A stretch of 64,000 nt of DNA from Candidatus Latescibacterota bacterium (GCA_965215195.1 CBDCDC010000002.1:3776001-3840000); one strand, 5' to 3'; numbered from the stretch's first letter, positions 6,492 through 64,000 are shown. Numbers and translations: made by a program. Notes: a model not told the origin generated them from the letters alone.

Positions 6492-7391
6492 TCATTCCAC
6501 GGCAAAGCCGAGGTCGTCCAGTGCCCGGCACAGGGCGGCGCGGCCCGCATCGTCGAATGGGATGTGGGGCGGTCGGGCCGGGCCTACGGGCAGGCCGCGC
6601 ATGGTCAAAATCTCCTTGACGGCCGCTAGCAGGTCAAAGTGGAACAAGGTGGAGATGACCTCGTTGGCGCGCGCTTGCAGGGCCATGGCCGGCCGGATGT
6701 CGCTCGCTTCAAAGTGCTGCCGCATCTCCACGAACAGTTTGGGCATGATGTTGTAGGTTGAGCCAATGGCCGCGTCGCTGCCGGCGACCATGCCGCCGAG
6801 GCAGATTTCGTCCGGGCCGGAGATGAGGTTGAGGCGGTCGCCGCCTAGCTGCACGAGGCGCTGGAAGAGGTAGAAGTTGCTGTCGGTGAACTTGAGGCCG
6901 CTGAAGTTGGGCACGGCTTCCATGGCGTCGAGGAACTGTTCGGCCGTAACGTCCTTGGCGGCAGTTTGAGCGAGCCAATACACGTAGAAGGGCAAATCAG
7001 TGGCCGCACCAATAGCTGCGTAGTGGGCGACCGCGGCTTGGAGGTCGTTGGGCTGATCCACCGGCGCAACCGAAGCCACGGCCTCCGCACCAGCGGCCGC
7101 AGCGTGCTGGGCCAATTCCACTGCATTGACCGTGCTCGTCGCGCCGACTTGGAAGATCAGGGGCACGGCACCGGCCACCGCGGCTAGGGTCGCTTCGGCC
7201 ATGGCTTTGCGCTCGGGCACGCTCATGGCACTCCCCTCGCCCGTGCCGCCGCAGACGAAGAAGCCGTTAGAGCCAGCGTCGATCAGGTGCCGGACGAGCG
7301 GCTCGACGCGCGCCGGGGCCAATGCGCTGCCGTCGTCGGTGAACGGAGTGACGAGCGCGGGCCAGATCCCGCGCGCTAGTTTGTCAGCCAT
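6492..7391 (-). CDS. DHDPS/N-acetylneuraminate lyase-family aldolase
   Basis: PALVTPF, GGTGEG, Schiff-base lysine in GLKFTD, AIGSTYN; ATG at 7391 with GAGGA SD. Confidence 0.85.
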   Translation of the reverse strand: MADKLARGIWPALVTPFTDDGSALAPARVEPLVRHLIDAGSNGFFVCGGTGEGSAMSVPERKAMAEATLAAVAGAVPLIFQVGATSTVNAVELAQHAAAAGAEAVASVAPVDQPNDLQAAVAHYAAIGAATDLPFYVYWLAQTAAKDVTAEQFLDAMEAVPNFSGLKFTDSNFYLFQRLVQLGGDRLNLISGPDEICLGGMVAGSDAAIGSTYNIMPKLFVEMRQHFEASDIRPAMALQARANEVISTLFHFDLLAAVKEILTMRGLPVGPARPPHIPFDDAGRAALCRALDDLGFAVE

Positions 7392-7439
7392 AGAATCCTC
7401 CACAGGTATGACTTGCGAATTCGTAGTTTGCAATTCCAA

Positions 7440-7624
7440 TTAAACCACTTGGCCGCCGCGGATGGTAGCCACCTGAGCACGGTGTGGGCCGGTCCTTCTA
7501 CGCCGGGGCCGGAGGCCACGATGCGGTCGCCGCGGATGGCCACGGCACCGAGGCCGTCTAGGCCGCTGTCCGCGCAGAACAGGCGCGGGGCACGCACCAA
7601 CAGGTCGTAGGTTTGTGCGGTCAT
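7440..7624 (-). pseudogene. Internally deleted amidohydrolase/dihydroorotase-like gene
   Basis: N-terminus MTAQTYDLLVRAPRLFCADSGLDGLGAVAIRGDRIVASG joined out of frame to QVATIRGGQVV-stop, a typical amidohydrolase C-terminus. Confidence 0.7.
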
Positions 7625-7628
7625 GGTG

Positions 7629-9980
7629 TTAGTAGGCCACGGCGATGGTGCGGAGCGCAGTGTCGTGGCCCGCATCCGCACCCAGATTGACGCGCAGGAC
7701 GTACAGGCCGGGTGCGGCGCTCGCTCCGTCGGCATCGCGGCCGTCCCAAGTGAAGAGGCGTTGCGAGCCCTCGGTGCTTGGGGTGAGGACCGCTACTTGG
7801 CGTCCGGCTAGATCGAAGACTTCCACCCGCGGCTCCGTGCCCTCCACTTTGAAGGCCACGAATCGCACCTCTAGCTGGTCGTTGATGCCGTCGCCGTTGG
7901 GAGTTACGGTCGCCGAGGCCAGTTGTAGGTCGCTGATGAGCTGGCCGCTGCTGGTCAGCTCGGGCAGCATGACGATGTTGGAGCGGCGCTCGGCCGCCTC
8001 GACTGACTGCCACAGGCCGGGTGATTCGCTCGATCCTAAGTCGAGGGCAAAGACGGTGGCATTTTGCAGCAGGCGGGTAGTGAAGCGCACTTGCAGGGAG
8101 TCGGCCGCGATCACCTGCGGCAACGCGATGAGCAGGGAGTCGGACTGCATGTCCAAGGCGGCCGGAACGACTTCTTCCGCGCCGACCATCACCGACACGC
8201 TCTGGAGGTCGACAGGTTCGGGGACGGTGAAGCGCAGGCGGTCAAAGCCGCTGTCGAGTTCGTCGGTTTCGGGCCAGAGAGTGTAGGTAAAGTGCGTGTC
8301 TTGGTTGGGGCTGGCCTCGCGGGGAGCGACGCTGCCGCGCGCGTTTTGGACTAAGGCGTTTTCGAACTCAACCGAGACCGAGTTGACGGTCGGGGCGACC
8401 GCCGGATCGTCGGTGGAGAGAATCATCTCCAGCAGCACGAAGCGGCGGGGGCTGTCCGACTTGAAGCTCTCACCGGAAAACTGGTACACGTTGCTCCAAG
8501 CGTCCCAGTCCTCGCCAACGACCAGCGAGGTGTCGATAGGGCCGCGCAGCACTTTGGGCGAGCTCTTCCATTTTTCCTCGGTGATTTCTTCGCCGAGCTT
8601 ATTGTGGAACGCATAGACCGGCGCCAGCGCGTTACCCGAACGCGAGCGCAGTTGCATCCGGGTGCCTAGAGGCAGGTCGGCGTCCCAGTGCAGGGCCTTG
8701 ATGACTTTGGGCCGCCCGTCGCCGGCTTCCTCGCCGAGGTTGATAAAAGCAGACTGCAACTCAACTTGGGCCGGATACCCCGGAGAGAACAGTTGCATTT
8801 CGCCCCACTTGGAAATGCCCCACCCCCGGCAGGTAACTCCGTGCCAGAGTAGGTAGCGGGCCTTGCGCGGCGCGAAGAGGTAGCGCATGTAAAGCAGGTT
8901 GTCGGCGTTGGGATCCAGATGAGTGAAGACCTCTTCGTAATCGACGTTTTCGGGCACTTCGACGAGCGGGGCGGTGCCCGTGGCCGGGGTGCCGTCGGAA
9001 AAGAGCAGGGTGTGGCCCGGCCCGGTGCCAGAGATGGTGAACCCCAGCGTGCCTTCGTCGGGCTGCATGGAGTAGATGAACATCTCGTCGATGAAGAACG
9101 TCGCGCCGAGATCTGCGCGGAACCACGTGCCGCCTTCGGCCCATTCCGACAGCGCGCCGCGACAGTCGGTGACGGTGTTGTTGGTGTTGAGGTTGGCGTC
9201 GAACAGGTTGAAGGTAGAGCCGGTGCCATCGCCTTCGACGAAATTGCCGCGCTGTCTGGTGCCAATGGCAATGTTGTCGCCAATGCCGATGACCTCAACC
9301 TCGGCGAGGGCGGCGTCTTGGTTTTGCTCTTCGGAAATGATTTGGATGTACTGGATCAACTGGTAGTGGTTGCGCTCTGCGGGCGTTAAGTCCAAGTCCG
9401 GGTCGATCACGAGTGCGCTGTCGCGGCCGGCGTAGCGCAGCGGGATCGCGATTGCGGCTTCGGCGTTGGGGCGCGTGGTGCGAAAGGCTTGGCGGTAGAG
9501 AAAGAGGTCTTCAGTGGCCGAGATGCGCACGCCCGAGGTGGTGAAGACGCGGAATTGGCGGAACGGACGCGCACCCTCTTGGTCGGGGAATTTCAGGCGA
9601 ATCTCGCGGGCTAGGGCTGCGCGGCCTAGGTCAATGGTGATGAACCAGTCCTCGCGGGCGTCGGCCGGGCTGGGTTGCCAATAGGTCGTCAGATCGCCGT
9701 CGATGGCCAGCGGGGCGTCGGCCGCGTTGGAACCGGCTTGCCAGAGGCCGCCGGCAACGGCATCGCCCCGGGCGCGCGTCTGGTGGACGAAGCGGTGCGC
9801 GTCCGCGACGAGGTTGATGTCCTTGCGGAATTTGACGAGCGTGAGCTGGCCCTGCTCTCCTACCTGAACCAAGCCGAAGGGCTGTTGCCATTGGGCCCAT
9901 TCCTCAGCGCTGTCGAAGGAGAGCACGTCAGCCGCTAGTGGGGCGGCTAACGCGAGACAGGCGATAATTGCACGGCGCAT
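7629..9980 (-). CDS. Secreted discoidin-like/FlgD-Ig protein, 'B-type' copy 2
   Basis: ATG 9980 with GGAGG SD; MRRAIIACLALAAPLAA leader; 'AIDGDLTTYW...IDLGRA', 'TPNGDGIND...WDGRD...IAVAY'; clear paralog of 12110-14452. Confidence 0.8.
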   Translation of the reverse strand: MRRAIIACLALAAPLAADVLSFDSAEEWAQWQQPFGLVQVGEQGQLTLVKFRKDINLVADAHRFVHQTRARGDAVAGGLWQAGSNAADAPLAIDGDLTTYWQPSPADAREDWFITIDLGRAALAREIRLKFPDQEGARPFRQFRVFTTSGVRISATEDLFLYRQAFRTTRPNAEAAIAIPLRYAGRDSALVIDPDLDLTPAERNHYQLIQYIQIISEEQNQDAALAEVEVIGIGDNIAIGTRQRGNFVEGDGTGSTFNLFDANLNTNNTVTDCRGALSEWAEGGTWFRADLGATFFIDEMFIYSMQPDEGTLGFTISGTGPGHTLLFSDGTPATGTAPLVEVPENVDYEEVFTHLDPNADNLLYMRYLFAPRKARYLLWHGVTCRGWGISKWGEMQLFSPGYPAQVELQSAFINLGEEAGDGRPKVIKALHWDADLPLGTRMQLRSRSGNALAPVYAFHNKLGEEITEEKWKSSPKVLRGPIDTSLVVGEDWDAWSNVYQFSGESFKSDSPRRFVLLEMILSTDDPAVAPTVNSVSVEFENALVQNARGSVAPREASPNQDTHFTYTLWPETDELDSGFDRLRFTVPEPVDLQSVSVMVGAEEVVPAALDMQSDSLLIALPQVIAADSLQVRFTTRLLQNATVFALDLGSSESPGLWQSVEAAERRSNIVMLPELTSSGQLISDLQLASATVTPNGDGINDQLEVRFVAFKVEGTEPRVEVFDLAGRQVAVLTPSTEGSQRLFTWDGRDADGASAAPGLYVLRVNLGADAGHDTALRTIAVAY

Positions 9981-9990
9981 CAAACCCTCC

Positions 9991-12024
9991 TTAGTAGGCG
10001 ATGCCCAATGGGCGGAGTTGGGGATCGGCGGCAAATTCCGAGCGCAGGTCTAGGGCCGCTAGGTAGAGCCCGGGCGGCAGCCGCCGGCCCGTTTCGTCGC
10101 GGCCATCCCAGCGCAGGCTCTGCGGACCCGCGTTTTGCAAGCCGGCCTCGACGAGCCCCACGCGCCGGCCATCGAGCCTATAGACTGCGAGGACGACGGG
10201 CACGGCTTCGGGCAAGCGGAACAGGGAATAGGCGACGCGCAGCTCGTCGTTGATGCCGTCGCCGTTGGGCGTAAAGACCGCAGAGGAAAAGGTCAGGTTC
10301 TGGATGAAAGCGGTTTCTTGCTCGGTGGTGGCGAGGACGCGCAGGCTATTAGTCGAAAGGGCTTCGCCGACGTCGGCACCGACTACGGGTTGCGGCAGAA
10401 CGTCGCGTTCGCTGTCTAGGACCTCGCTCTGAAAAGTGGTAGCGAATTCAAATATCTCCGTGCCAAAGACGATGCGGATGGGCGGATTGTTGGCGCGGGT
10501 GATGCGCTCGGGCAGGCGGATGAGCAAGCCCTCGGTCTCTTGGGTAATTTCGGCCGGCACAGCTTCCGTGCGGCTCTCGCCCAGTTGCAGGCTTTTGAGT
10601 TCGGTTTGGTGCCCGGTGCGAATGCGCAACAGGTCGAAGCCGGGCGCGTCAACGGCCTCGAAGTCGGCTTGGAGATCATAGACGAATTCTATGGCTTCGC
10701 CCAAGGGGACTTGGGCAATCCCGCCGACCGGCTGCGGGTCGTCTAGGGGGGCCACTTCGCCGCGCACGTTGGCGGCCAGCAGCGGAGCGGTTTCGAGCCA
10801 CAACGAGTCGAGGCGCGCGAAGTCGTCGAAGGAATCGCTCTCCATGGCGATGCGGAGCTGCAAATAGGTGCCGTTGCGCAGGTTGATCGGTTGGCCCGAC
10901 TCGACGAAGGGCGCAGACCAGAAGGTCCAATGGTCTGAATCGTAGCCGATGGACGCGCGGACGCCCGGCTTGGGCTGGCGTTCGGTCAGGTCGTCCGCGG
11001 CCGTGACGCGCACAAAGCGAGTACGCAGTGCGTTTTCGTAGTGGTCGCGCGCGACTACGCGCTCCAGCCCGGTGTCCATGTACTCGTGATAGACGGCCGG
11101 GTCCTCGTCTAGGCCCGTGCGGATTTCGATCTTGATTTGGGCCGCCGCGTCCGGGGCCTCCACTGGGGTTCCATCGACCATGCGGAATTTTGTCTCCTGC
11201 CAGAACAGCCGCCCGAAATTCACGGGTTCGCCGAGGTCCGTTATCTTGGTCTTGTACATGGCCCGCTGCGGTACGCCTTGGGCCAAGAGCTGAAACTCGC
11301 TGATCGAACCGATGAGGGCGATGGCGACGTTGCCGCTCTTGGCTTGGGCTTCCTCGTCTAGTAGCGAGAGGGTCCGGCGGTAGCGGAAGAAGCGCAGGTA
11401 CTGACGGGCGAAGTCGATGCGCACTTGGGGTTCGAAATTGGAGTTGACGTCGGCGATGACCGTGGAGAGCGGGTTGACATTGCCTTCGAGCACCGGGGAT
11501 TCGGGCGCGACCGAGGCGGTCACCTGAAAGGCGGGAACAAAGTCCGTTTCGAGTGGGGTGCCGTCGGAGCGAAAGCCCTCGCTGGGCGGGATAAAGCCGA
11601 AGGCCACGGCCGGCACCGACACGGCCAAATCCATGGTAAAGGTCTCTTTCTCGATGCGGTCGGCTTTGGGTGGGTTGTAGGTGATAGGGTCGCCATCGAT
11701 GAGCCAAGAGCCGTTTTCCGAAGGATCGGGCACGCCGTGGTTCCACTTCCACATTCGCGGCGTTTCGCCGTCTAGGTAGTCGAAGACGCGGTCGCTGGGG
11801 TCGCGCCAGAAGGCCCAATTGTCGATGTGGGAAAAAACCGTCTCATCTAGCGTGAAGTACGTGGGCTGGATGGCGCCGGGGGTGGCTGCGAAATCGACGA
11901 AGAGGCGAGTCGTGTCGTTTCCGCTCCAAGCTAGGCCGCTGCCGCCTAGTTGCCAGTGGGAAATCTGGGCGGTGGCACTTTGCGCTAAAATTAGGGTGAA
12001 CAGGACGATGGTGGCGCGGCGCAT
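9991..12024 (-). CDS. Secreted FlgD-Ig protein, 'A-type' copy 2
   Basis: Signal peptide, QISHWQLGGSG N-terminus, VNFGRLFW, FTPNGDGIND, ends LGIAY; paralog of 14459-16465. Confidence 0.8.
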   Translation of the reverse strand: MRRATIVLFTLILAQSATAQISHWQLGGSGLAWSGNDTTRLFVDFAATPGAIQPTYFTLDETVFSHIDNWAFWRDPSDRVFDYLDGETPRMWKWNHGVPDPSENGSWLIDGDPITYNPPKADRIEKETFTMDLAVSVPAVAFGFIPPSEGFRSDGTPLETDFVPAFQVTASVAPESPVLEGNVNPLSTVIADVNSNFEPQVRIDFARQYLRFFRYRRTLSLLDEEAQAKSGNVAIALIGSISEFQLLAQGVPQRAMYKTKITDLGEPVNFGRLFWQETKFRMVDGTPVEAPDAAAQIKIEIRTGLDEDPAVYHEYMDTGLERVVARDHYENALRTRFVRVTAADDLTERQPKPGVRASIGYDSDHWTFWSAPFVESGQPINLRNGTYLQLRIAMESDSFDDFARLDSLWLETAPLLAANVRGEVAPLDDPQPVGGIAQVPLGEAIEFVYDLQADFEAVDAPGFDLLRIRTGHQTELKSLQLGESRTEAVPAEITQETEGLLIRLPERITRANNPPIRIVFGTEIFEFATTFQSEVLDSERDVLPQPVVGADVGEALSTNSLRVLATTEQETAFIQNLTFSSAVFTPNGDGINDELRVAYSLFRLPEAVPVVLAVYRLDGRRVGLVEAGLQNAGPQSLRWDGRDETGRRLPPGLYLAALDLRSEFAADPQLRPLGIAY

Positions 12025-12109
12025 GACGGCTCTCCTTTGGCAGGGCGCAAATCAGAGACATGCGCCAACAATATAATGTTTGATAAGCAATTATCCTATC
12101 TGCGGAGTA

Positions 12110-14452
12110 TCAGTACGCCACGGCAATGGCGTGCAGTGCTGTATCGTCGCCGGCGTCAGCGTCTAGGTCAATGCGACAGAGGTAGGTGCCGGGCGGCACG
12201 AGGTCGCCTTGGGTAGCGCGTCCGTTCCAGGTGAAGACGTAGGCCACGCCGTCGATGGTCGGGGCCGCGAGTTCGGCGATGAGCTGGCCGGCGAGGTCGA
12301 AAATGCGCCCTTGGGGCGTGCGTTGGCTGACCTTGAAGGCGACAAAGCGGATGACCGCTTCGTCGTGGACGCCGTCGCCGTTGGGGGTGAACACCCGCGA
12401 GGAGATCGAGAGGTCGTCGATGAGCTGGGTCGTGCCGGTCAGGGCGGGGAGCATGACGATATTGGCGCGGCGCGTCAGCGGCTCAACCGATTGCCACAGA
12501 CCCGGATGCGCACTGGAGCCTAAGTCCAACGCAAAGAGCGTGGCGTTGTGTACTAAGCGGGTGGCAAAGTGGACGCGGACCGAATCGTCTCGGACCGGAT
12601 CGGGTAAGGCGATGAGCAGGGAATCTCCGCGCAGGGAGGCCGCCGCTGGCGAGACGGTTTCGCTGCCCTTCTCTACGCTCACGCTGTGCAAATTGATCGG
12701 ACCTCGTAGATCGAAACGCATTAGGTCGAAGCCGATGTCAGCGGGGCCGGCACTGGGCAACAGGGTATAGGTGAAGGCCGTCTCCTCGTTGGGTGGGGCA
12801 CTGCGCGGCTCAACGCGCCCGCGGGCACTCTGGAGCAGGGCGTCGTCGAATTCGATTGACAGCGAATTGACTGTGGGCGCGACCTCGGGGTGGTCGGTGG
12901 CGAGGATCATCTCCAGTTGCACGAAGCGACGCGGGCTTTGCGATTTGAATGCCTCGCCGGAAAAGGTGTACGCCTCGCTCCACGCATCCCAATCCTCGCT
13001 GACCGCGACGGTGGTGTCGATTTTCCCCCGCAGCACTTTGGGCAGGCTGAGCCACTTCTCCTCGGCGATTGGCTCGCCGATCTTGTCGTGGAAGGCATAG
13101 ACTTCGCGCTGGGTGTTGCCCGAGCGCGAGCGCACTTGCAGACGAGTGCCGGGCGGGATGTCGGCGTCCCAAGAGAGACTGCTGATGACTTTGGGACGGC
13201 CGTCGCCGGTAGCCATGCCAAGATCGATAAAGTCCGAGCGCATGACGACCTCGGCGGGATGGCCCGGCGAAAAGAGCATCAGTTCGGTCCAGCGCGAGCC
13301 CCAGTCTTGGGGGGTATGGGCGTGCCAGAACAGGTAGCGGACCTTGCGCGGTTGGAACAGATAGCGCAGATAGCGAATGGGGTCGGGGTCGGGTTGGTCG
13401 ATGAAGGGGCTGAAGTCGAAGGATTCGGGGATGGGGAGTCGGGAGTTGATGACGCGGGTTCCGTCTGAGTGGAGGAAGGTAAAGCCTCTGGGAGCACCAG
13501 CCACGGAACCGACTGTGCCTTCGCGCGGCCGGAGTGCATACAGGAAAAGCTCGTCGAGCCAGAATACGGCCCCTAGGTCGATGAAAAACCAAGTGCCCTG
13601 CTCCTCCCAGGTGCGGACGCGGCCTTCGAAGCCCACAGGCAGGATGGAGCTGGCCGTGTTCATGTCGCCGTCGAGGATGTTCGCGGTGGAGCGGGCAGTA
13701 AGTCCGTCGAGGATGCCGCCGCGCTGGTCATTGCCCAAGCTGACGTTGTCGCCGACAGCGATGACTTCGACTTCGGCTAGTGCGCCTTCAGGATCGAAGT
13801 CTTCAACGGTGAAGTTGATGTACTGGATGAGGCGGTACTGGTTGAATTCTTCCAGATCGACAGCGCGGCTGGGGTCGAGGACTTGGGCGCTGTCTTGGAG
13901 GTCGAAGGCGAGGGGGACCGAGACGGTGGTGTCTCGGTTGGGTTGAGTCGTGAGATAGACCGGGCGAAAAATAAAGAGGTCGTCGAGGGCATCGGAAGTG
14001 ATGCCCGTGGCGGTGAAGACGGTGAACTGGCGGAAGGGGCGGGCCCCTTCTTGGTCGGGGAAGTGCAGGCGGATCTCTTTGGCCAGCACGGCGCGGCCGA
14101 GGTCGATTTGCACGAACCAGTCGCCGAGGGCGTCGTCGGTAGAGGCTTGCCAGAAGGTCTCGCGGTTGCCGTCCATGATCCGCCTAGCCGCGGCTGGGTT
14201 GCTGCCGGCTTCCCAGATCCCGCCCGTCGCGTTGGCGCCGCGCGAGCGGGTGAGGTGGGTAAAGTCGGGCGCGTTGGCTACGGCGTTGATGTCCTTGCGG
14301 AACTCGACCAGTCGCAACTGGCCGCGGTCGCCAAACTCGATCAGGCCATAGGGCATTTTCCAGGTCGCCCAGCTAGCTGGGCTATCGAAGCGGAATTCTG
14401 CGGCGGCCAGCGCGGTCGCCGAACAAAGGCCCCAGAGCAACAGCGGACGCAT
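12110..14452 (-). CDS. Secreted discoidin-like/FlgD-Ig protein, 'B-type' copy 1
   Basis: FDSPASW...LVEFRKDIN, FPDQEGARPFRQF, DGRPKVI, FTPNGDGVHD, ends IAVAY. Confidence 0.8.
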   Translation of the reverse strand: MRPLLLWGLCSATALAAAEFRFDSPASWATWKMPYGLIEFGDRGQLRLVEFRKDINAVANAPDFTHLTRSRGANATGGIWEAGSNPAAARRIMDGNRETFWQASTDDALGDWFVQIDLGRAVLAKEIRLHFPDQEGARPFRQFTVFTATGITSDALDDLFIFRPVYLTTQPNRDTTVSVPLAFDLQDSAQVLDPSRAVDLEEFNQYRLIQYINFTVEDFDPEGALAEVEVIAVGDNVSLGNDQRGGILDGLTARSTANILDGDMNTASSILPVGFEGRVRTWEEQGTWFFIDLGAVFWLDELFLYALRPREGTVGSVAGAPRGFTFLHSDGTRVINSRLPIPESFDFSPFIDQPDPDPIRYLRYLFQPRKVRYLFWHAHTPQDWGSRWTELMLFSPGHPAEVVMRSDFIDLGMATGDGRPKVISSLSWDADIPPGTRLQVRSRSGNTQREVYAFHDKIGEPIAEEKWLSLPKVLRGKIDTTVAVSEDWDAWSEAYTFSGEAFKSQSPRRFVQLEMILATDHPEVAPTVNSLSIEFDDALLQSARGRVEPRSAPPNEETAFTYTLLPSAGPADIGFDLMRFDLRGPINLHSVSVEKGSETVSPAAASLRGDSLLIALPDPVRDDSVRVHFATRLVHNATLFALDLGSSAHPGLWQSVEPLTRRANIVMLPALTGTTQLIDDLSISSRVFTPNGDGVHDEAVIRFVAFKVSQRTPQGRIFDLAGQLIAELAAPTIDGVAYVFTWNGRATQGDLVPPGTYLCRIDLDADAGDDTALHAIAVAY

Positions 14453-28634: not shown

Positions 28635-29855
28635 GTTTGATCTCCGGTAAGTACTCTTTACTACGCGACACCTGGCCCGCACGAGGGTAGGCCCTACTGT
28701 CGTGTCCGCCCTCGACGTTGAACAGGTGGATGCCGCTTCCCAGATCGGAGACGATGGCGGCATCGTCGCCCCCTCTACGGTGCAGTGTGCGATTTGTCGG
28801 CTCAGATGCCAAAGCCGCAGCTATCCACGCGGGCGTCGGGGGCGGAGCGGTCGATCCAGATGCCGCTGCCGGTGCCGCGCAACGCCTCGAGCCGAGTCCC
28901 GGGTGATTAGAAGGTGCCGATGACCGAGACCCGATGGACGTGGCCTAAATCGGGAGAGGACGAGTACGCGTAATCGACCGCGTAGCGGTTCATGGTCAGG
29001 CCGGCCCCGGCACTCAGGCCCAGCGGATCCTCGTCTTGGGCACCGGTCTGTTGGGTGGTGTACCCGGGGCGGATGTAGAGGCCGCCGGCGAGCTGGACCT
29101 CGAGGCCGAAGGATAGGTACGAGTCGTTGTCGTTGGGCAAGTTGAAATCGGCCACCAAGAGCATGGGCACGGGCATGTGCGCGAGGCGATGGGCCATCCC
29201 CAGCCGGATGTGTACCGGCAGCGAATCCTTGAAGCCAGCCGTGTAGCCCGAGCGCACAAAACCGAGGTTGGCGATAGCTGCGCCGAGGGTCGTGCCCTCA
29301 ATCGGGGCGCGGACGAGGAGGCCGAGGTCGGCGAGATAAGCGTCCGCAGAAAATTCGGCGATAGTTGAATAGACGGCTTTTAGATTGGCGCCGATGGCCA
29401 GCCAGTCCGGCCCGAGCGGTTGGGCCACGGACAGATACGCGGCGAGGTCGGTCGCTGAGAAGGTCCCCAAATCGCGCCCTTCTGCGTCGGTGTGCCGCAA
29501 GTCGCCGTAGGATACGTAGTGGACGCTCAGGGCGCGTACGCGAGACCCCTTGGGGGCGGCGATGGAGGCGAAGCCGGCTTGGGAATCGACGAAATAGCTG
29601 TTGTAGGCGAGCGCGGCCGTGCGCTCGCTCAAGCCGAAAAGCCCGGCCGGATTCCAAGCCGAGGCTTCGATGTTGCCGGACACGGCCGCATAGGCCCCGC
29701 CGAGCGCGGCAGCGCGGGTGCCGACGCCGATCTTGAGAAAGTTGAAACCCGTGGTGCCGGCGTTGGGGTTGATCGCCGCCGCGGACGTCAGGGTCACAAG
29801 TAGGATGCAGGCTGGGAGGGCGCAGTATCTCATGGTTTGATCTCCGGTAAGTACT
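28635..29855. repeat. 21-bp perfect direct repeat (28635-28655 and 29835-29855) flanking the PorV-family gene
   Basis: GTTTGATCTCCGGTAAGTACT at both sites, 1200 bp apart. Confidence 0.9.
28907..29833 (-). CDS. PorV/PorQ-family outer-membrane beta-barrel
   Basis: FLKIGVGTRAAALGGAY, WNPAGL, C-terminal VDYAY...LGHVHRVS...F. Confidence 0.85.
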   Translation of the reverse strand: MRYCALPACILLVTLTSAAAINPNAGTTGFNFLKIGVGTRAAALGGAYAAVSGNIEASAWNPAGLFGLSERTAALAYNSYFVDSQAGFASIAAPKGSRVRALSVHYVSYGDLRHTDAEGRDLGTFSATDLAAYLSVAQPLGPDWLAIGANLKAVYSTIAEFSADAYLADLGLLVRAPIEGTTLGAAIANLGFVRSGYTAGFKDSLPVHIRLGMAHRLAHMPVPMLLVADFNLPNDNDSYLSFGLEVQLAGGLYIRPGYTTQQTGAQDEDPLGLSAGAGLTMNRYAVDYAYSSSPDLGHVHRVSVIGTF

Positions 29856-34850: not shown

Positions 34851-34982
34851 GAAGCGGTCTGAAAATTCCGGGTATCGTCCCTTGTATGAGGATCGAGGGC
34901 GTCTCGCCCTCGCAAAACGCTCCCTCCGAGGGCCTCTCAACCGCTGCTCAACGCGGTTCGCCGAGGGTTTGCAGACTGCTTC
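34851..34982. mobile_element. 132-bp MITE (family 1, IS5-like ends) with TAA target duplication
   Basis: TIRs GAAGCGGTCTGAAAA / TTTGCAGACTGCTTC; TAA at 34848-34850 and 34983-34985; internal CGAGGGCG-TCT-CGCCCTCG hairpin. Confidence 0.75.
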
Positions 34983-57913: not shown

Positions 57914-58825
57914 ATGTCAGCAGCACCGGGGCAAACGCAAATTGGCTTTATCGGCTTGGGGATCATGGGTGCGCCCATGGCCAAGAACCTGCTCGCGGCC
58001 GGCTATCGGCTCAACGTGTACAACCGCAGCGACCGGCCGCGCGTCGACGAGGTCGTCGCGGCCGGTGGCGTGCGCGTCGGCTCGCCCAAGGCGGCGGCGA
58101 CAGGTGCGGACGTCGTCATCAGCATCGTCACGGACACGCCCGATATGGAGGCCGTGCTCGTGGGCGAGGAGGGCGCGATTCACGGGGCCAAAGCGGGCGC
58201 GGTCGTCATCGATATGAGCACGGTGTCGCCCAAAGTCACCCGCGCAGTGGCGGCCGCCTTGCAGGAGCGGGGCGTGGCCATGCTCGACGCGCCCGTCAGC
58301 GGCGGGGATGTGGGCGCGATCAACGGCACCCTGTCGATCATGGTCGGCGGCGACGAGGCTGTCTTCGACCAGTGCCGGCCGGTCTTTGAGGCCATGGGCA
58401 CCAACATCAACTTGATTGGCCCCAACGGCGCGGGCCAGACCACCAAGCTCTGCAACCAGATCGCAGTTTCGGTCAACAACATGGCCATGGCCGAGGCCCT
58501 GATGCTGGCGGCGACCTCGGACTTGGACGTGCAAAAGGTCATTGACGCCATCAGCGGCGGGGCGGCTGGCTCTTGGCAGTTGAGCAACTTAGGCCCGCGC
58601 ATTGCCGCTGGCGATTTTGACCCGGGCTTTATGGTCTATTTGCAGCAAAAGGACCTGCGCTTGGTCTTGCAGGCGGCCAACGACGTCAAGCTGGCCCTGC
58701 CGGCCGTGAGCATCGCCCACCAGTTCTTCAACATCGTCGAGCGCGCGGGTTGCGCCGAAGAGGGGACTCAGGCGCTGATCAAAGCCTATGAGGCCCAGGC
58801 CGGCAAAGAGGCGCGGGCCAAGTAG
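57914..58825 (+). CDS. beta-hydroxyacid dehydrogenase (GarR/GlxR/MmsB family)
   Basis: GFIGLGIMGAPMA, DAPVSGG, GQTTKLCNQ, KDL. Confidence 0.88.
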   Translation: MSAAPGQTQIGFIGLGIMGAPMAKNLLAAGYRLNVYNRSDRPRVDEVVAAGGVRVGSPKAAATGADVVISIVTDTPDMEAVLVGEEGAIHGAKAGAVVIDMSTVSPKVTRAVAAALQERGVAMLDAPVSGGDVGAINGTLSIMVGGDEAVFDQCRPVFEAMGTNINLIGPNGAGQTTKLCNQIAVSVNNMAMAEALMLAATSDLDVQKVIDAISGGAAGSWQLSNLGPRIAAGDFDPGFMVYLQQKDLRLVLQAANDVKLALPAVSIAHQFFNIVERAGCAEEGTQALIKAYEAQAGKEARAK

Positions 58826-58832
58826 GCCATCG

Positions 58833-59624
58833 GTGCAACTCGCATTAAAAAAGGCCGGAGTCCTGCTGCGCGATCAGGATTTGGATTATCCGGTTGCCGA
58901 GGTGCGCGAGCTATTTGCCCCGCATGGGATCGCAGTGCGCTTTATCGAGGGGGACGAGCGCCCGGACGACCTAGACTTGGTAATCGCGCTCGGAGGCGAC
59001 GGCACAGTGCTGCGCGCCTTTGCGCGTTTCCCCCAGCGGCCAGTGCTGGCGATCAATTTCGGCACCGTCGGCTTCTTGACCGCTGGGGACCGCAAGGATT
59101 TGGCGCGCATCGTCCAGCTCTTAGTCGATGGCCAGTACTTTGTCAGCGAGCGCTTGGTGCTCTCTTGCCGCTATCCCGGCGGCGAGAGTCTGGCCTTCAA
59201 CGAGGTGACCTTGCGGGCGCACCACAAAATGCTCTCCACGGACGTCTTCGTCGACGACGCCAAAATTCGCACTATCCGCGGCGACGGCGTGGTAGTTGGC
59301 ACGCCAACGGGCAGCACCGGGCTGTTGCTATCTATGGGTGCGCCGCTGGTCATGCCGGAAGTGCGCTGCATGTTGCTCGACGGCATCAACGAATACAACT
59401 TCACATCGCGGACCTTGATCCTGCCGGCCGAGAAGCGGGTGCGGTTGCGCGTCAGCCCCGGGATTTTGGACAGCCATGTGGTGCTCATTGTCGATGGCCG
59501 CGAGATATGCAGTTTAGCCCCCGAGCAGGAGGTGTACGTCGGCCAAGCCGCACACACGGCGCGGCTGATCTACTTAGACGATAAGTACTTTTTTCACAAC
59601 TTGTCGGAGAAACTTTCTTGGTAG
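58833..59624 (+). CDS. NAD kinase family protein
   Basis: GGDGTVL, INFGTVGFL, FNEV, GDGVVVGTPTGST, KLSW. Confidence 0.8.
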   Translation: MQLALKKAGVLLRDQDLDYPVAEVRELFAPHGIAVRFIEGDERPDDLDLVIALGGDGTVLRAFARFPQRPVLAINFGTVGFLTAGDRKDLARIVQLLVDGQYFVSERLVLSCRYPGGESLAFNEVTLRAHHKMLSTDVFVDDAKIRTIRGDGVVVGTPTGSTGLLLSMGAPLVMPEVRCMLLDGINEYNFTSRTLILPAEKRVRLRVSPGILDSHVVLIVDGREICSLAPEQEVYVGQAAHTARLIYLDDKYFFHNLSEKLSW

Positions 59625-60211
59625 ATTATGTTCCAAGCCGTATATTGGCGGGCAATCGAGTCGAATTCAGTATCGTTTCAAGTGACGACGGCATAGAGGA
59701 GGAAAAAGATGACCGATATCGATTCTGAACAGCATGAAGTCGAGGAAACTGGAGCAAGGGCGTGGGATCGGATCATGGGGGCATCGTTGGCACTTCCTGG
59801 GACAAAAGTTGACCGCAACAGCTTTCTTTATTCTCAACTCCATAATCATTGCGATGAGACGCAGGTTAGGAAGGCAATTGAAGACAGGCCTGCTAATGCT
59901 GGAATACCATCCAATCTGATTGATAGGTTGGCTGATGCCTGCATTAAGTCGCATGTTCGCAAAGCTTCTGCGATTTCATTTGGGACGGGCTTGCCGGGTG
60001 GTTGGGCGATGGCGGCCACAATTCCCGCCGACCTAGCTCAATTCTATTGGCACGCAATCGTCTTATCCCAGAAGTTGGCGCACTTATATGGCTGGCCAGA
60101 CTTACTGGAGGAAGACGAGGCTGACGAAGAGACTAAGGCGAGGATTACGCTACTCATCGGAGCGATGATGGGTGCTGAGGGAGTTAACAAAGTAATAAGC
60201 GAGGTGGCTAA

Positions 60212-61154
60212 GAGCCTATACGGAAATCATGTCAACCGTTCGACGATTTGAAAAATGATAAGCACCGAAGCGACCTGAATGAATGCTTCGTAATGGGTAC
60301 TCTTTTTCTCCCATCGGACCAACAGACGACGGAATCGATTATGCCAAGCATGGGTTCGTTCAACCACCCATCGACGAGCCGGATGTTTCTTTTGCGCGGG
60401 TATAGAGGCCTTGTCGGCTTGACTTTTCGCCAAGTGTAGGTGATAGTCGCGTTCCTCGACTCCTTCAATAACCTCGGCGTAGTCATAGCCTTTGTCCAGA
60501 CACAGATGGTGCAGCCGATAGACGACTTTCTTGGGTCTTTCCACGACGAGGCCATCCAACGTCGCCAGTGCTACCGTTTTGTCATGCGTATTGGCTGCGG
60601 TTACTTCCACGGCCAGCGGTGCGCCTCGCTGGTCGGTCAACACCGACCGTTTAGTGCCCTTTTTACCCCGATCGACCGGCGACGGACCGGTCGCTTCGCC
60701 GCCCAACGGCGCTTTGGTGATCACCCCATCGAGGGCTTGCCATTTCCAAGCAATGCCCACTTGCTTATCATAGTAGTGTAGCAGCGTCTGCCAAGCTCGG
60801 AGAAACACGCCTTGTTTCACCCACTGGCGGAACCGACCGTGGACGGTCGAGCCGGGTGCATAGGCTGCCCGCGGAATGGCCTGCCATTGGCAGCCGCTGC
60901 GCAACACAAAGATCATGGCGTCAAAAAGGACACGGTGGGGTGTGGGCGGACGTCCGACGGTGCCGGGTTGTTTTTCCGGACCCAGAATCGGGGCGATTAG
61001 ATTCCACAAGGCATCCGGGGTATGCCAGATCGTGTCCGGCGAATCGGTCTTGGTGGCCATGGCTTTCTTCCTCTTGGTTGAGGGTCAAATGGTACGGAAA
61101 GCGTAGGTCGCCAAGACCTTTGTATCAACAAAAAATCAATTTTCGTATAGGCTC
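60212..61154 (-). mobile_element. IS5-family insertion sequence (943 bp)
   Basis: TIRs GAGCCTATACGGAAAT / ATTTTCGTATAGGCTC (1 mismatch); TAA target duplication at 60209-60211 and 61155-61157. Confidence 0.92.
60227..61060 (-). CDS. IS5-family DDE transposase
   Basis: LRSGCQW, TVHGRFRQW, LDG, DRGKKGTKR, LDKGYD, RWVVERTHAWHNRFRRL. Confidence 0.93.
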   Translation of the reverse strand: MATKTDSPDTIWHTPDALWNLIAPILGPEKQPGTVGRPPTPHRVLFDAMIFVLRSGCQWQAIPRAAYAPGSTVHGRFRQWVKQGVFLRAWQTLLHYYDKQVGIAWKWQALDGVITKAPLGGEATGPSPVDRGKKGTKRSVLTDQRGAPLAVEVTAANTHDKTVALATLDGLVVERPKKVVYRLHHLCLDKGYDYAEVIEGVEERDYHLHLAKSQADKASIPAQKKHPARRWVVERTHAWHNRFRRLLVRWEKKSTHYEAFIQVASVLIIFQIVERLT

Positions 61155-61499
61155 TAAGCGATTTGCCAGCCAAACTGTGCGCCGTCTTCCGAGGCAGGCG
61201 CTCACTAAGACTATGTACTATCCGCTAATCAAACAGATTGGCAAATGGATTGGAATTAACGTCACCAAAAACACCTTTGCGCGTAGCGTGTCAAAAGTCG
61301 TGCCAATTATTGGCGGACTTATTTCCGCTGGCGTGACTGCGGCAATGATGAAACCTATGGCCAAGCGACTGAAGAATCACCTAAGAGAGTTGCGATTAGC
61401 ACATCCTGACGGTCATAACAGGTGAGAAGGGTGAGTTACACCCCATCGGTAAAGTCTGACTGAGGCCAGATTTTGGACGTTGACAGGAGAAAAGAATCG

Positions 61500-62447
61500 G
61501 TGAAAGGCGATACTAAGCAGGTTGACAATCAAGCTAGTAGTAACGGACAAGCTGCAAATCCACGCATTATCATCGACGCTAGCTACATTCGCGGCATGAG
61601 CAGAGACGGTGCGCCGCTTCGCACCATGAGTGAACAAGGCGGTCGCATCGTGCTAATCGATACTTTATCGTACGAGCTTATTACCTCCGATCGTAACCAA
61701 TGGCCCGCAGCGAAGAGTAGGCTTACAGCGTGCCAAGACGCTATCGAGGTCTGGGAACATGTCCCCAAGATGTTGAGGGTCGAGATTGAAGAGAACTGTC
61801 CGTACGGCGATCCTTTACGCCCTGAAGAAGAAACTGAACGCTTTCGAGAAATGCTGGCAAACGATCCGCAGGACGAGCCTGATGATTTGGGAGAAATAAT
61901 TGATAAGGTACGTCAAGAACGCGAAGGTCCCAATATACCTGAACTATTTCAGAACTTCGCAAGACTCAATAAAGAGTTTGGTGAGGAGATCACGGCAAAG
62001 ATCAAAGATAAAGCACCCCATGATAAAGAAGTTGTGCAAACTTGTTTCTCCGCAATTAACGATGACCAAAGCATTCGGTCAATGGTAGATATAGTCCGGT
62101 CCTCGGTGAAGAATGACATGGATGTTTCACTAAACCCCCAAGAAGTAAATGAAAAGTGGGTTATATGGCACTTTTCTAAATCGCTTCTCACCGTGCTCTG
62201 CGATTGTCTGCGGCGCGGTGAGAATGCGTTTAAGGAAATATCTAAGAACCATGAGAAACGTTTGAACAACATAACACATGACTTAGACTACTTGATTTTA
62301 TTGGCGTTTGCAGATGCGATTGCATCCCGCGAAACAAAAGGAGAATTGTTTTACTATCGGCGATGGATGTTTGGCGATGCCTTAAAACCGTTGATAAGCT
62401 CTTATAAAAAAGAGCAAATCGTGCATACATTACAGACAGATGTCTAA
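61500..62447 (+). CDS. Hypothetical PIN-like protein, copy 1 (N-terminal part)
   Basis: AGGAG SD before GTG 61500; RIIIDASY...DTLSYEL...HDLDYL...ADAIASRE acidic pattern. Confidence 0.6.
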   Translation: MKGDTKQVDNQASSNGQAANPRIIIDASYIRGMSRDGAPLRTMSEQGGRIVLIDTLSYELITSDRNQWPAAKSRLTACQDAIEVWEHVPKMLRVEIEENCPYGDPLRPEEETERFREMLANDPQDEPDDLGEIIDKVRQEREGPNIPELFQNFARLNKEFGEEITAKIKDKAPHDKEVVQTCFSAINDDQSIRSMVDIVRSSVKNDMDVSLNPQEVNEKWVIWHFSKSLLTVLCDCLRRGENAFKEISKNHEKRLNNITHDLDYLILLAFADAIASRETKGELFYYRRWMFGDALKPLISSYKKEQIVHTLQTDV

Positions 62448-62730
62448 AATCGCGATTTATGTAACTGAGCAACTAGATGGATATACGTATGCACTTGATC
62501 CTTGGAGCCGAGAGTCGCTAAAGATACAGGATTCGGAAACGCTACCTGCAAGCGTGTTTATCTCGTATGAAACCAAACGGCACTTTGAGTTTTTTAATGG
62601 CCCAATATGGAAACATACTGTAGAGATCCTTACAGGCTATTCGACACCAGAACTTCGGGAATTTGGTGGGGTCGTATTTGTGGATACCACAACACTAGAT
62701 CCTCTATTTGAGCCTTCAGAAGCGGTCTGA
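62440..62730 (+). CDS. Hypothetical protein; homolog of the C-terminal domain of copy 2
   Basis: MSKIAIYVTEQLDGY matches MSKVVVLVTEQLDGY, which is in frame in copy 2; stop codon supplied by a MITE end. Confidence 0.6.
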   Translation: MSKIAIYVTEQLDGYTYALDPWSRESLKIQDSETLPASVFISYETKRHFEFFNGPIWKHTVEILTGYSTPELREFGGVVFVDTTTLDPLFEPSEAV

Positions 62731-62822
62731 AAACCCTCAGCGGTTCGGCGGCGCGGCTCGACGGATCACGGCGAAAGGGATTCCCGCTTGTCTTGCTCCG
62801 CAAGGTGAAGCGCGGGAATGAC
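62719..62822. repeat. MITE family-1 end plus ATTCCCGC...GCGGGAAT palindrome
   Basis: GAAGCGGTCTGAAAACCCTC matches the ends of the 34851-34982 element; GGATTCCCGC...GCGGGAATGAC hairpin at 62778-62822. Confidence 0.65.
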
Positions 62823-62877
62823 AATGGGGACGACAGGAAGCCACAGACGATAAAGGCTGCGTAACGTCTGAATTATA

Positions 62878-63003
62878 CCTAACTACACGACACCAATAAC
62901 TTGTCGTTGATGGGCGATGAGTCCGGGATCGAGGGCGTCCCGCCCTCGACGAGGGCAAGATGCCCTCAATCCGAGGGTAAGGCCCTACTGTCGTGTACTT
63001 AGG
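62878..63003. mobile_element. 126-bp MITE (family 2) with AATTATA target duplication
   Basis: TIRs CCTAACTACACGACA / TGTCGTGTACTTAGG; AATTATA on both sides; internal GAGGGCAAGATGCCCTC and TCGAGGGCG-TCC-CGCCCTCGA palindromes. Confidence 0.8.
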
Positions 63004-63063
63004 AATTATACAAAAGAAGACATGGCAATGGAAGTTTTGGATGTTGACAGGAGGCAAGAGCGC

Positions 63064-64000
63064 ATGGAAGACAATCAAGCTAGTAGTAACGGACAAGCTG
63101 CAAATCCACGCATTATCATCGACGCTAGCTACATTCGCGGCATGAGCAAAGACGGTGCGCCGCTTCGCACCATGAGTGAACAAGGCGGCCGCATCGTTAT
63201 AACCGATACTTTAGCTCGCGAGCTTTTAACGTCAGATCGCAATCGATGGCCCGCAGAGAAGCAGAAGCTGGTGGAGTGCCGGGACGCTGTTGAGGTCTGG
63301 AAACATGTACCCGAGATGTATAGGATCGAGATTGAAAAGAACCGTCCGTACGGCGATCCTTTACGTCCTAAAAAAACTAAATGTATGCGAAAAATATTAA
63401 AAGAGAATCCAGATTTTCGATCTGACAATTTGGAGACACTAGTTGAGGATTGGAAGCAAGAAGCAGAAAGCGAAAGTAGTCTTGAATTATTGCGGATCCT
63501 CGCAACTTCTCAATCGCCATTTAGCGAAGAAGATATAAAAAAAATTAGAAACAGAGACCCCAATAATAAGGAAGTCGTTCAGGTCTGTTACAATTTGGTC
63601 AACGACCCAGAGAATATTCGGTTAGTAGTGAAGAATGTTGTTCAAAATCCCGATAAAGTAGATCACACTTGGGTCCTATGGCATCTATCTAAATCGCTTC
63701 TTGCAGTGCGTTGTGATAGAGAATGCCGAGGTAAAGATAAGTTTAAGAAAATATCAAATAAAAAATTGGCCAATATAAAACATGACTTAGACTACTTAGT
63801 TTTATTGGCATTCGCAGACGCGATTGCATCTCGCGAAACAAAAGGGGAACAGTTTTACTATCGTCGGTGGATGTTTGGCGATGGATCAAAGCCGTTGATA
63901 CGTTCTTATGAAAAAGAACAAATTATGCACAAATTCAGACAGATGTCCAAAGTCGTGGTTCTCGTAACCGAACAGCTAGATGGATATATATGTGCTCTCG
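63064..64000 (+). CDS. Hypothetical PIN-like protein, copy 2 (runs off the window end)
   Basis: Not in the ORF track; AGGAGG SD, ATG 63064, open to 64000; MEDNQASSNGQAANPRIIIDASY...HDLDYLVLLAFADAIASRE...FRQMSKVVVLVTEQLDGY. Confidence 0.75.
   Translation, partial: MEDNQASSNGQAANPRIIIDASYIRGMSKDGAPLRTMSEQGGRIVITDTLARELLTSDRNRWPAEKQKLVECRDAVEVWKHVPEMYRIEIEKNRPYGDPLRPKKTKCMRKILKENPDFRSDNLETLVEDWKQEAESESSLELLRILATSQSPFSEEDIKKIRNRDPNNKEVVQVCYNLVNDPENIRLVVKNVVQNPDKVDHTWVLWHLSKSLLAVRCDRECRGKDKFKKISNKKLANIKHDLDYLVLLAFADAIASRETKGEQFYYRRWMFGDGSKPLIRSYEKEQIMHKFRQMSKVVVLVTEQLDGYICAL

Follow-up and report, generated by a model that had tools for sequence, protein, structure and literature searches.

In type II toxin–antitoxin (TA) systems, the antitoxin gene precedes and overlaps the toxin gene and encodes a DNA-binding domain together with a toxin-binding region (Matelska et al. 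2017, PMC5499597; this source and PMC10440598 are cited here from excerpts). In the same work, the VapC-like PIN nucleases (group 2) have an active site, site A, that is made up of four Asp or Glu residues, e.g. D6, E43, D99 and E120. The Glu that comes after strand 2 is part of a helical insertion, which lies between S2 and H3 (PMC5499597). For multidomain antitoxins with a Panacea domain, it has been described that neutralization is carried out by other small domains (PAD1, Phd-C, ZFD), and Panacea itself has been proposed to be a sensor (PMC10440598).

Here we describe a locus in a 64,000-nt stretch of DNA from a Candidatus Latescibacterota bacterium (GCA_965215195.1, CBDCDC010000002.1:3776001-3840000; the whole stretch is called the window, and positions are counted from its first nucleotide). 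Two tandem paralogs of a gene that we call A are located near its end, each with a small downstream domain that we call B. The original prediction, made from the sequence alone, described the locus as a tandem array of PIN-like genes with conserved ends and a variable core, and as a candidate diversifying defence or toxin locus. Both the tandem paralogs and their low-GC surroundings were confirmed: the GC content is 0.59-0.69 in the upstream core and drops to 0.38-0.55 past ~59500. A-B is an undescribed family for which no Pfam, NCBIfam or PADLOC model exists, and it is a new family rather than a fast-diversifying toxin array. What is unusual in A is a large insert with two allelic classes, together with a placement in the antitoxin slot beside several unrelated toxins.

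The A family, its predicted fold and its place in operons

The first copy, A1, is an open reading frame (ORF) of 324 amino acids (aa) on the plus strand (61473..62447); it has a PIN-like domain with what we call the A1-type middle and ends before the usual B domain. The database gene call starts at 61500, and residues are numbered from there. B1, the detached C-terminal domain, is a 96-aa ORF on the same strand (62440..62730) that overlaps the A1 stop by 8 nt. The second copy, A2 (63022..63942, plus strand; database gene call from 63064), is a 3'-open ORF with a PIN-like domain and an A2-type middle. It is fused in frame to B2, which starts at 63943 and runs past the window end at 64000, its translation continuing as ...RQMSKVVVLVTEQLDGY; the full A2 protein (P0040) has 385 aa, the whole B domain included. 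No more than these two copies of A were seen in the window, and neither holds internal stops. At ~62431-62433 the copies come to differ by 1 nt in frame, their repeat spacing going from 1504 to 1503, and A1/B1 is therefore the frame-split form of an A-B gene that is usually fused. The same split end (…HTLQTDV) was present in a protein from another contig (P0002, 83% identical).

A1 had 131 homologs at E ≤ 1e-3 in a 90%-clustered database, none of which was Pfam-labelled over the A region. A profile search of 1.84 billion representatives yielded 135 clusters at 50% identity, 75 of them at ≤ 1e-10. Searched directly, A1, A2 and B1 gave no match in Pfam, PADLOC or NCBIfam, and tblastn found no match to A1 and two distant relatives among the PLSDB plasmids or to A1 among the INPHARED phages. 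The literature searched, including the excerpts of PMC10440598 and PMC5499597, contained no description of the family; the portion of the PMC5499597 catalogue covered lists no HicB-linked or comparably inserted PIN family, with 0 occurrences of 'HicB'. The papers listed for PDC-S30, a candidate defence gene near A, are genome surveys.

The homologs fall into four length classes: ~300 aa (A alone), ~330-360 aa (A with C-terminal tails), ~385-420 aa (A and B fused) and ~480-495 aa, in which an N-terminal HicB_lk_antitox domain (PF15919, best 2.8e-12) precedes A and B (12 of 117 aligned members). Fourteen of 50 distant or fused members end in a C-terminal DUF2934 of ~35 aa, which scored above the Pfam cut-off in 13; P0137, P0143, P0147, P0151 and P0241 are among the members with this ending. 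In P0139, A is followed by a C-terminal MNT-type nucleotidyltransferase (NTP_transf_2, 2.3e-14; PADLOC PDC-S09, 1e-25). Large extra regions of no known family were seen in P0168 (845 aa) and in P0131, P0136 and P0232 (~480-496 aa).

B forms the C-terminal end of A-B proteins in 41 aligned relatives (385-495 aa), and only two free-standing B proteins of 52-168 aa were found in 5.8 billion. As B is fused in the relatives, A and B do not have the arrangement of separate, co-transcribed toxin and antitoxin genes. The AlphaFold2 (AF2) model of B had a predicted local distance difference test score (pLDDT) of 79 and was confident in one of five models. Its best Foldseek match had an E value of 0.36, and the matches, sugar-kinase N-lobes plus a ROK repressor, have a generic beta-beta-beta-alpha-beta motif in common; the ESM Atlas gave no usable match to B. 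B is thus modelled as a small beta-rich C-terminal module with no fold assigned. A complex prediction for A1 and B1 scored 0.00, which is evidence neither way.

The AF2 model of A, built from 117 sequences, reached a pLDDT of 88.1 and a predicted template-modelling (TM) score of 0.86. Its topology is b1-a-a-b2-a-a-b3-[helices 88-268]-b4-a-b5-a, with strands at residues 22-25, 49-53, 82-85, 273-275 and 298-299, helices between them and an all-helical stretch at 88-268; the core is split after strand 3 by a helical insert of ~170 aa. We aligned 61 relatives, down to 15% identity to A1, and placed the conserved residues against the secondary-structure order of this model. D26, E59, W220 and D261 were invariant (61/61), position 276 was Ser or Thr and position 278 Glu or Asp in all 61, and E95 (60/61), K/R74 (60/61) and Y264 (58/61) were nearly so. 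The five positions that had been singled out beforehand as PIN-like, namely D26 in IIID, the helix Glu E59, D261 in DLDY and S276 and E278 in AIASRE, are therefore all conserved in 61 of 61 relatives. In A1, the predicted catalytic codons lie on the plus strand at 61575-61577 (D26), 61674-61676 (E59), 62280-62282 (D261) and 62331-62333 (E278). In the modelled order, D26 comes just after strand 1, E59 is on the helix past strand 2, D261 is on the helix before strand 4, and S276 and E278 come just after strand 4. This pattern would supply the four acidic residues and the hydroxyl residue of PIN site A, and the spacings (33 residues from D26 to E59 and 17 from D261 to E278) are similar to those of D6/E43/D99/E120. 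Two other assignments for the conserved D/T/K pattern in A were rejected: a receiver domain, since the strand-3 Asp of receivers is absent, and the HAD type, since the DxDxT motif of HADs is absent.

PIN-like proteins made up eight of the 49 PDB rows listed by Foldseek for the A model: 5wzf (VapC20), 2fe1 (PAE0151), 1v8o and 1v8p (both PAE2754), and 7qhy, 8rd3, 8rdd (Nmd4) and 7e8k (HARP/PRORP), the last four of which we take to be PIN-like. Each of the eight had a probability of 0.13-0.35 and a target-normalized TM score of 0.22-0.39. PAE2754 is placed under PIN.COG4113 in the PMC5499597 excerpt. The nearest named ESM Atlas cluster to A was PIN as well (score 0.87), which we treat as a lead. 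From the model and the conservation pattern, we consider it fairly likely that A has a PIN-like core; the PIN fold and a nuclease activity are probable properties of A.

We then compared gene order at 17 related loci (prefixed L), taken from one genome per species and comprising 16 metagenome-assembled genomes (MAGs) of Latescibacterota and one of Gemmatimonadota; gene calls at these loci are our own ORF picks. The A genes of more distant relatives stand in other TA and defence settings. At L009, a VapC gene (Pfam PIN, 6e-13) shares 4 nt with the gene for a 333-aa A protein that has a tail of ~50 aa, and at L012 and L017 a MazF gene (PemK, 7e-25) shares 11 nt with those for tailed A proteins of 347 and 357 aa. 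A separate antitoxin gene is missing from all three loci, and A with its tail occupies the type II antitoxin slot exactly. At L005, a 66-aa HicA-like gene lies upstream and overlaps the start of a HicB-A-B gene by 4 nt. These four relatives (L005, L009, L012 and L017) are the loci at which A overlaps a recognized toxin gene and no other antitoxin is present. VapC homologs were also found on contigs equal in size to those of tailed A proteins (P0256/P0042, P0258/P0062, P0252/P0065 and P0280/P0056). At L003, A-B and a gene that we call C are followed by HicA and a free HicB. Gene C (~160 aa) overlaps or abuts the A-B stop in eight of ten loci with B and in none of seven without B; it has a weak PDDEXK_5 match (best 7e-5) and a D...QVK motif.

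We favour the reading that A-B belongs to a TA-like defence module, as its regulatory subunit or as a second effector, and that A is a VapC-like, metal-dependent PIN nuclease, and we give it a little less than an even chance. The usual product would be a ~400-aa two-domain protein, A-B, in which A most likely is the nuclease. A would act as a shared chassis in the antitoxin slot of type II TA-like operons, and an adaptor, B in the window, would hold the partner toxin, which may be C in the relatives. The PIN-like domain would supply an RNase, either for post-transcriptional control of the operon in place of a DNA-binding domain or as a second effector. If this is true, an unannotated nuclease-like family stands in the position in which type II antitoxins normally have a DNA-binding domain, in combination with several toxins that are unrelated, and would be a tractable system for testing toxin regulation by accessory domains. 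The family also provides an annotation handle on hypothetical proteins in defence islands of Latescibacterota and Gemmatimonadota.

Several results weigh against this reading. Foldseek found nothing at E ≤ 0.001 for the A model (best E 0.24 in PDB and 0.79 in BFVD), and no PIN match in Pfam was obtained for A1, A2, 117 close homologs (E ≤ 10) or 50 distant or fused members (E ≤ 0.1). PDB sequence searches with two profiles returned helical or designed proteins only (E ≥ 0.099). With hhalign, two alignments of the A family (queried at full length and as N and C parts) gave less than 1% probability against one VapC alignment, a weak comparison in that the VapC alignment stemmed from the neighbour in L009, had members that were all at least 77% identical and had an effective number of sequences of 1.9. 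No partner toxin is visible in the window, where C does not follow B1 and the region downstream of A2-B2 lies beyond the window end, and the Pfam match of C is below the gathering score. The free-standing HicB of L003 is also without a recognizable DNA-binding domain, which weakens the idea that A replaces one. A rearrangement without functional meaning could have produced the HicB-A-B fusion, and a nuclease within a labile, over-produced antitoxin is mechanistically awkward. Of the PIN identity given in the original prediction, the catalytic-like signature thus stood, but the fold was not significant in Foldseek, profile hidden Markov model (HMM) searches or hhalign.

A broader version of the favoured reading makes A a promiscuous accessory domain of multidomain antitoxins that has not been described before, a Panacea-like hub whose basis is a PIN-like nuclease and its large, variable helical insert. 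It would have been joined to neutralizing modules against a minimum of four or five toxins that are unrelated to one another: HicA, VapC, MazF, probably HEPN via MNT, and PD-(D/E)XK via B. The RNase would replace the DNA-binding domain and sense a trigger or control the operon post-transcriptionally, and the two insert classes would be alternative trigger or substrate specificities. We regard this version as possible but doubtful. If true, A would be a second hub domain after Panacea in the evolution of TA and defence systems, with probable catalytic activity.

It is unlikely that A-B is a self-contained fused TA system or an auto-inhibited effector, in which B is a cis-acting inhibitor or sensor and the VapC, MazF, HicA and PD-(D/E)XK genes are merely co-resident. 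The near-absence of free B, the complete putative catalytic set on A and an island rich in unrelated TA and defence genes would all fit such a protein. However, the catalytic residues are retained in many members without B (the ~300-aa, DUF2934, tailed and MNT forms), the 4-11 nt that A shares with toxin genes at L009, L012 and L017, where no other antitoxin gene is present, speak for coupling, and B and C occur together. Still more improbable is that A is non-catalytic and provides multidomain antitoxins with an accessory or sensor scaffold, in analogy to Panacea, its acidic residues being structural or ligand-binding. A scaffold would explain why no search gave a significant PIN match and why A is combined with four or more unrelated toxin-linked modules, as described for Panacea (PMC10440598, excerpt). 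Three invariant acidic residues and an S/T-x-D/E motif at PIN-equivalent positions, kept down to 15% identity, are nevertheless more typical of an active site.

Mosaic evolution of the two copies

Between the A1 and A2 proteins, 184 of 321 positions are identical (57%; 20 gap positions), and the divergence is distributed unevenly. The 5' blocks at 61524..61642 and 63070-63188 (plus strand) match at 118 of 119 nt, as originally noted, and their single mismatch is at 61603. A chance origin of this run is vanishingly unlikely, because the N segment overall is 83% identical. In a sliding window of 20 codons, nucleotide identity was 0.98-1.00 at 61518-61607 (third positions 1.00), fell to 0.50-0.58 at 61818-62087 (third positions 0.35-0.55) and rose again to 0.83-0.88 at 62268-62417, near the 3' end. 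The middle carries indels of 10, 3 and 1 codons, so the strongly diverged, indel-bearing core and the non-uniform divergence that had been predicted are both real. A repeat finder recovered the copies as stretches of 300 nt at 87%, 170 nt at 84% and 63 nt at 78% identity. The variable middle of A1 (residues 119-255, the distal helical insert; 61854..62264, plus strand) and its A2 counterpart (~63397-63768) have amino acid identities of 0.20-0.60 and nucleotide identities of 0.50-0.70.

We calculated synonymous (dS) and nonsynonymous (dN) divergence per segment by the Nei-Gojobori method, without site models. Between A1 and A2, dS was 0.11 in N1 (residues 20-60), 0.47 in N2 (61-118), 1.67 in M (119-255) and 0.77 in C (256-310), in line with the earlier proposal that recombination keeps the ends alike. 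Between-class pairs from other genomes had a dS profile of the same shape along the gene. The ratio dN/dS was 0.05-0.67 in every segment of every pair, and in the middle segment it was 0.16-0.59 in 17 of 17 pairs and never above 1. Within one class, residues 61-118 were often more diverged than the insert (A2 compared with L007: dN 0.32 in N2 and 0.11 in the insert).

Only two middle classes exist among the close homologs, each 62-94% conserved internally. The A1-type middle is found in window copy 1, L001-L005, L010 and L011, and the A2-type in window copy 2, L006, L007, L008 and L014. A2 is 72-75% identical to the single copies of L006, L007, L008 and L014 and 54% identical to A1-type copies. 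In segment M1, members of its own class share an identity of 0.62-0.80 with A2 and those of the other class 0.26-0.42, a split that the N and C segments do not have. In a tree of the middle segment, the classes are parted by a branch of 0.76 substitutions per site (support 100/100). The tree of the C segment keeps the A2-type clade, with a branch of 0.053 (support 95/93), and that of the N segment places window A2 outside its class and nearest to window A1. The insert classes are found in mixed combinations with upstream neighbours and B types: PDC-S30 genes accompany A1-type (L001, L004) and A2-type copies (L008, L014), a JukA-like gene occurs with both, and P0004 has an A1-type middle joined to a B domain that is 97% identical to B2.

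We propose that two old allelic insert classes, each single-copy at the same hotspot in other species, were brought side by side in the window genome. Recombination or gene conversion would repeatedly homogenize and shuffle the flanks of A, and a recent conversion tract of ~119 nt would join the two adjacent copies. Two results speak against this history: dS in the middle segment is near saturation, which may inflate the excess there, and an approximately unbiased (AU) test of the N segment did not reject monophyly of the A2 type (p 0.313). We conclude that the pattern is one of mosaic evolution under purifying selection; diversifying selection is unsupported, because no segment reaches a dN/dS of 1. 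Old allelic classes and gene conversion can give rise to 'conserved ends, variable core', a pattern for which diversifying selection is not needed.

These data bear directly on the possibility that A, as a PIN RNase, serves as a toxin or an anti-phage effector with a constant catalytic frame and a swappable, diversifying specificity insert, the tandem copies being alternative specificities. The copies do differ mainly in the helical insert and are alike in the ends that bear the active site, recombination is seen in the flanks, insert classes are shuffled against upstream neighbours, and a second genome appears to have two copies (P0002, P0004). Nevertheless, we find this improbable given the low dN/dS of the middle in all 17 pairs, the presence of just two internally conserved classes and a within-class divergence of N2 that goes beyond that of the insert. 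One copy of A was present within ±10 kb at 17 of 17 related loci, and a pair was seen only in the window and, probably, on a single further contig (P0002 and P0004). 'Diversifying' and 'tandem array' as a family trait were therefore not upheld, and the hallmarks behind the likeness to polymorphic toxins, a delivery or secretion domain and arrays of orphan cassettes, are absent.

The island, the hotspot and their cargo

The low-GC island starts directly after an NAD kinase gene (ORF 58788-59624), which was named from homologs at related loci that match Pfam NAD_kinase domains. The PDC-S30-like gene next to it, A1, B1 and A2 are all on the plus strand. The PDC-S30-like gene (59709-61425) is a candidate single-gene defence protein with a hydrophobic C-terminal segment, and it carries an insertion of ~0.95 kb. 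Its 5' fragment (59709..60218, plus strand; PADLOC PDC-S30, E 5e-58) covers residues 15-173 on profile positions 9-169 of 268, and its 3' fragment (61165..61425, plus strand; E 2.1e-33) covers profile positions 168-248. In the intact homologs of L001, L004 and L014, residues 1-170 are contiguous with the 3' fragment (tblastn). The insertion is an IS5-family insertion sequence (IS) on the minus strand (60219..61164, boundaries approximate) with a transposase ORF at 60227-61060 (NCBIfam transpos_IS5_3, 2e-68; Pfam DUF4096 and DDE_Tnp_1) and a 90% inverted repeat at 60207-60227 and 61139-61159.

The cassettes are separated by a GC-rich spacer of 291 nt (62731..63021), which contains a 24-nt inverted repeat (62869-62892 and 62989-63012) and a short palindromic element. 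At 62734-62876, the spacer resembles the sequence upstream of A in L003 (79% identity). A palindromic piece of ~58 nt (~62915-62972) is 95% identical to L005 15875-15932 on both strands, and shorter copies lie at 28682-28705 and 34890-34912 of the window; it may be a REP-like or miniature mobile element. An Rfam search of 59000-64000, spacer included, gave no match at E ≤ 1, and a promoter and terminator scan found nothing that marks cassette boundaries.

The island is partly decaying in the window genome, because copy 1 is split into A1/B1 and its PDC-S30-like neighbour is broken by an IS. That the whole window locus is a decaying remnant without current function is very improbable, for although a duplicated gene with one copy frameshifted by 1 nt relative to the fused form, an IS-broken neighbour and a missing C gene after B1 would suit it, both copies lack internal stops and have dN/dS values of 0.1-0.6 against orthologs, the B1 ATG overlaps the A1 stop in a coupling-type junction, and P0002 keeps the same split end; decay at this locus is in any case compatible with our explanation of the family.

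A is found in the same syntenic hotspot at 11 loci. PpiD-like, 3-hydroxyisobutyrate-dehydrogenase-like and NAD kinase genes form one flank and epimerase-family genes the other. The conserved hotspot corresponds to window 57914-59624 and to L001-L008, L010 and L014, and its cargo varies by genome. A PDC-S30 gene is directly upstream of A in L001, L004 and L014 and is truncated in L008. Upstream of A, L002 has genes for a GTPase-like protein, a 305-aa protein and a JukA-like protein (PADLOC, 5.2e-22), with homologs in L006 and L010, and L003, L005 and L007 have neither PDC-S30 nor the JukA set. Because A occurs with PDC-S30, with a JukA-like gene or with neither, it appears to be an independent module of the hotspot. 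The defence context that had been proposed therefore holds for the neighbours, which are defence and TA genes, and not for A1, A2, B1 and C, which match no PADLOC model. Single-copy homologs in a housekeeping setting had been named as evidence that would speak against a defence locus; the homologs are indeed single-copy, but they are set in a variable defence and TA island and not in a housekeeping operon.

Other gene groups near A were recorded in passing. The conserved L002 trio (7160-9952) consists of a small GTPase-like protein with an N-terminal hydrophobic segment, the 305-aa protein, which belongs to no known family, and the JukA-like protein (221 aa); together with its counterparts in L006 and L010, it may be an uncharacterized Juk-related defence module. 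A DUF4160 gene and a 110-aa gene that overlap each other lie just downstream of the A locus (L001 11825-12389, L002 10980-11547) and are probably another small two-gene module of the island. Directly upstream of distant A genes, a DUF4258 gene is followed by a gene for a 375-389-aa protein (L015 8395-9872, L017 8511-9635, L016 12638-13881), in which an MqsA-like zinc-ribbon N-terminus, of antitoxin type, is fused to a large unknown C-terminal domain. In L013, a distant A lies between a Ser/Thr kinase (PADLOC mad6, PD-T4-6; 3e-39) and a PDDEXK_4 protein (7290-8444 and 11021-12187), one more setting of the defence-island kind.

Comparison with known systems

With the VapC-like PIN nucleases (PMC5499597, excerpt), A shares a predicted alternating beta/alpha core and the positions and spacing of four acidic residues and a hydroxyl residue. 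Both are found in TA-rich islands, and the weak Foldseek matches of A are enriched for PIN proteins. Unlike these nucleases, A is ~300 and not ~130 aa long, has a ~170-aa helical insert after strand 3 with its own invariant W220, and has no significant match in Pfam, NCBIfam, hhalign or Foldseek. It also stands in the antitoxin slot instead of the toxin slot, fused to an N-terminal HicB domain (HicB-N), MNT, DUF2934 or B.

Panacea (PanA, DUF4065) resembles A in that one domain is combined with several unrelated toxin families, and the tails, HicB-N and B are likely the neutralizers on the side of A. The likeness is functional and architectural only: no member matches DUF4065, A has a nuclease-like active-site signature, and its pairing with toxins is deduced from a handful of loci.

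With HicAB, the family shares the HicB_lk N-terminus in 12 of 117 homologs, including that of L005, where a HicA-like gene overlaps. Canonical HicB carries a DNA-binding domain where the fusions carry A-B. The window copies differ from HicAB in having no HicB domain and no HicA neighbour. PDC-S30 and Juk (JukA) are immediate upstream neighbours of A that share its strand and hotspot, PDC-S30 in the window and at four loci, whereas A, B and C themselves belong to no defence family modelled in PADLOC.

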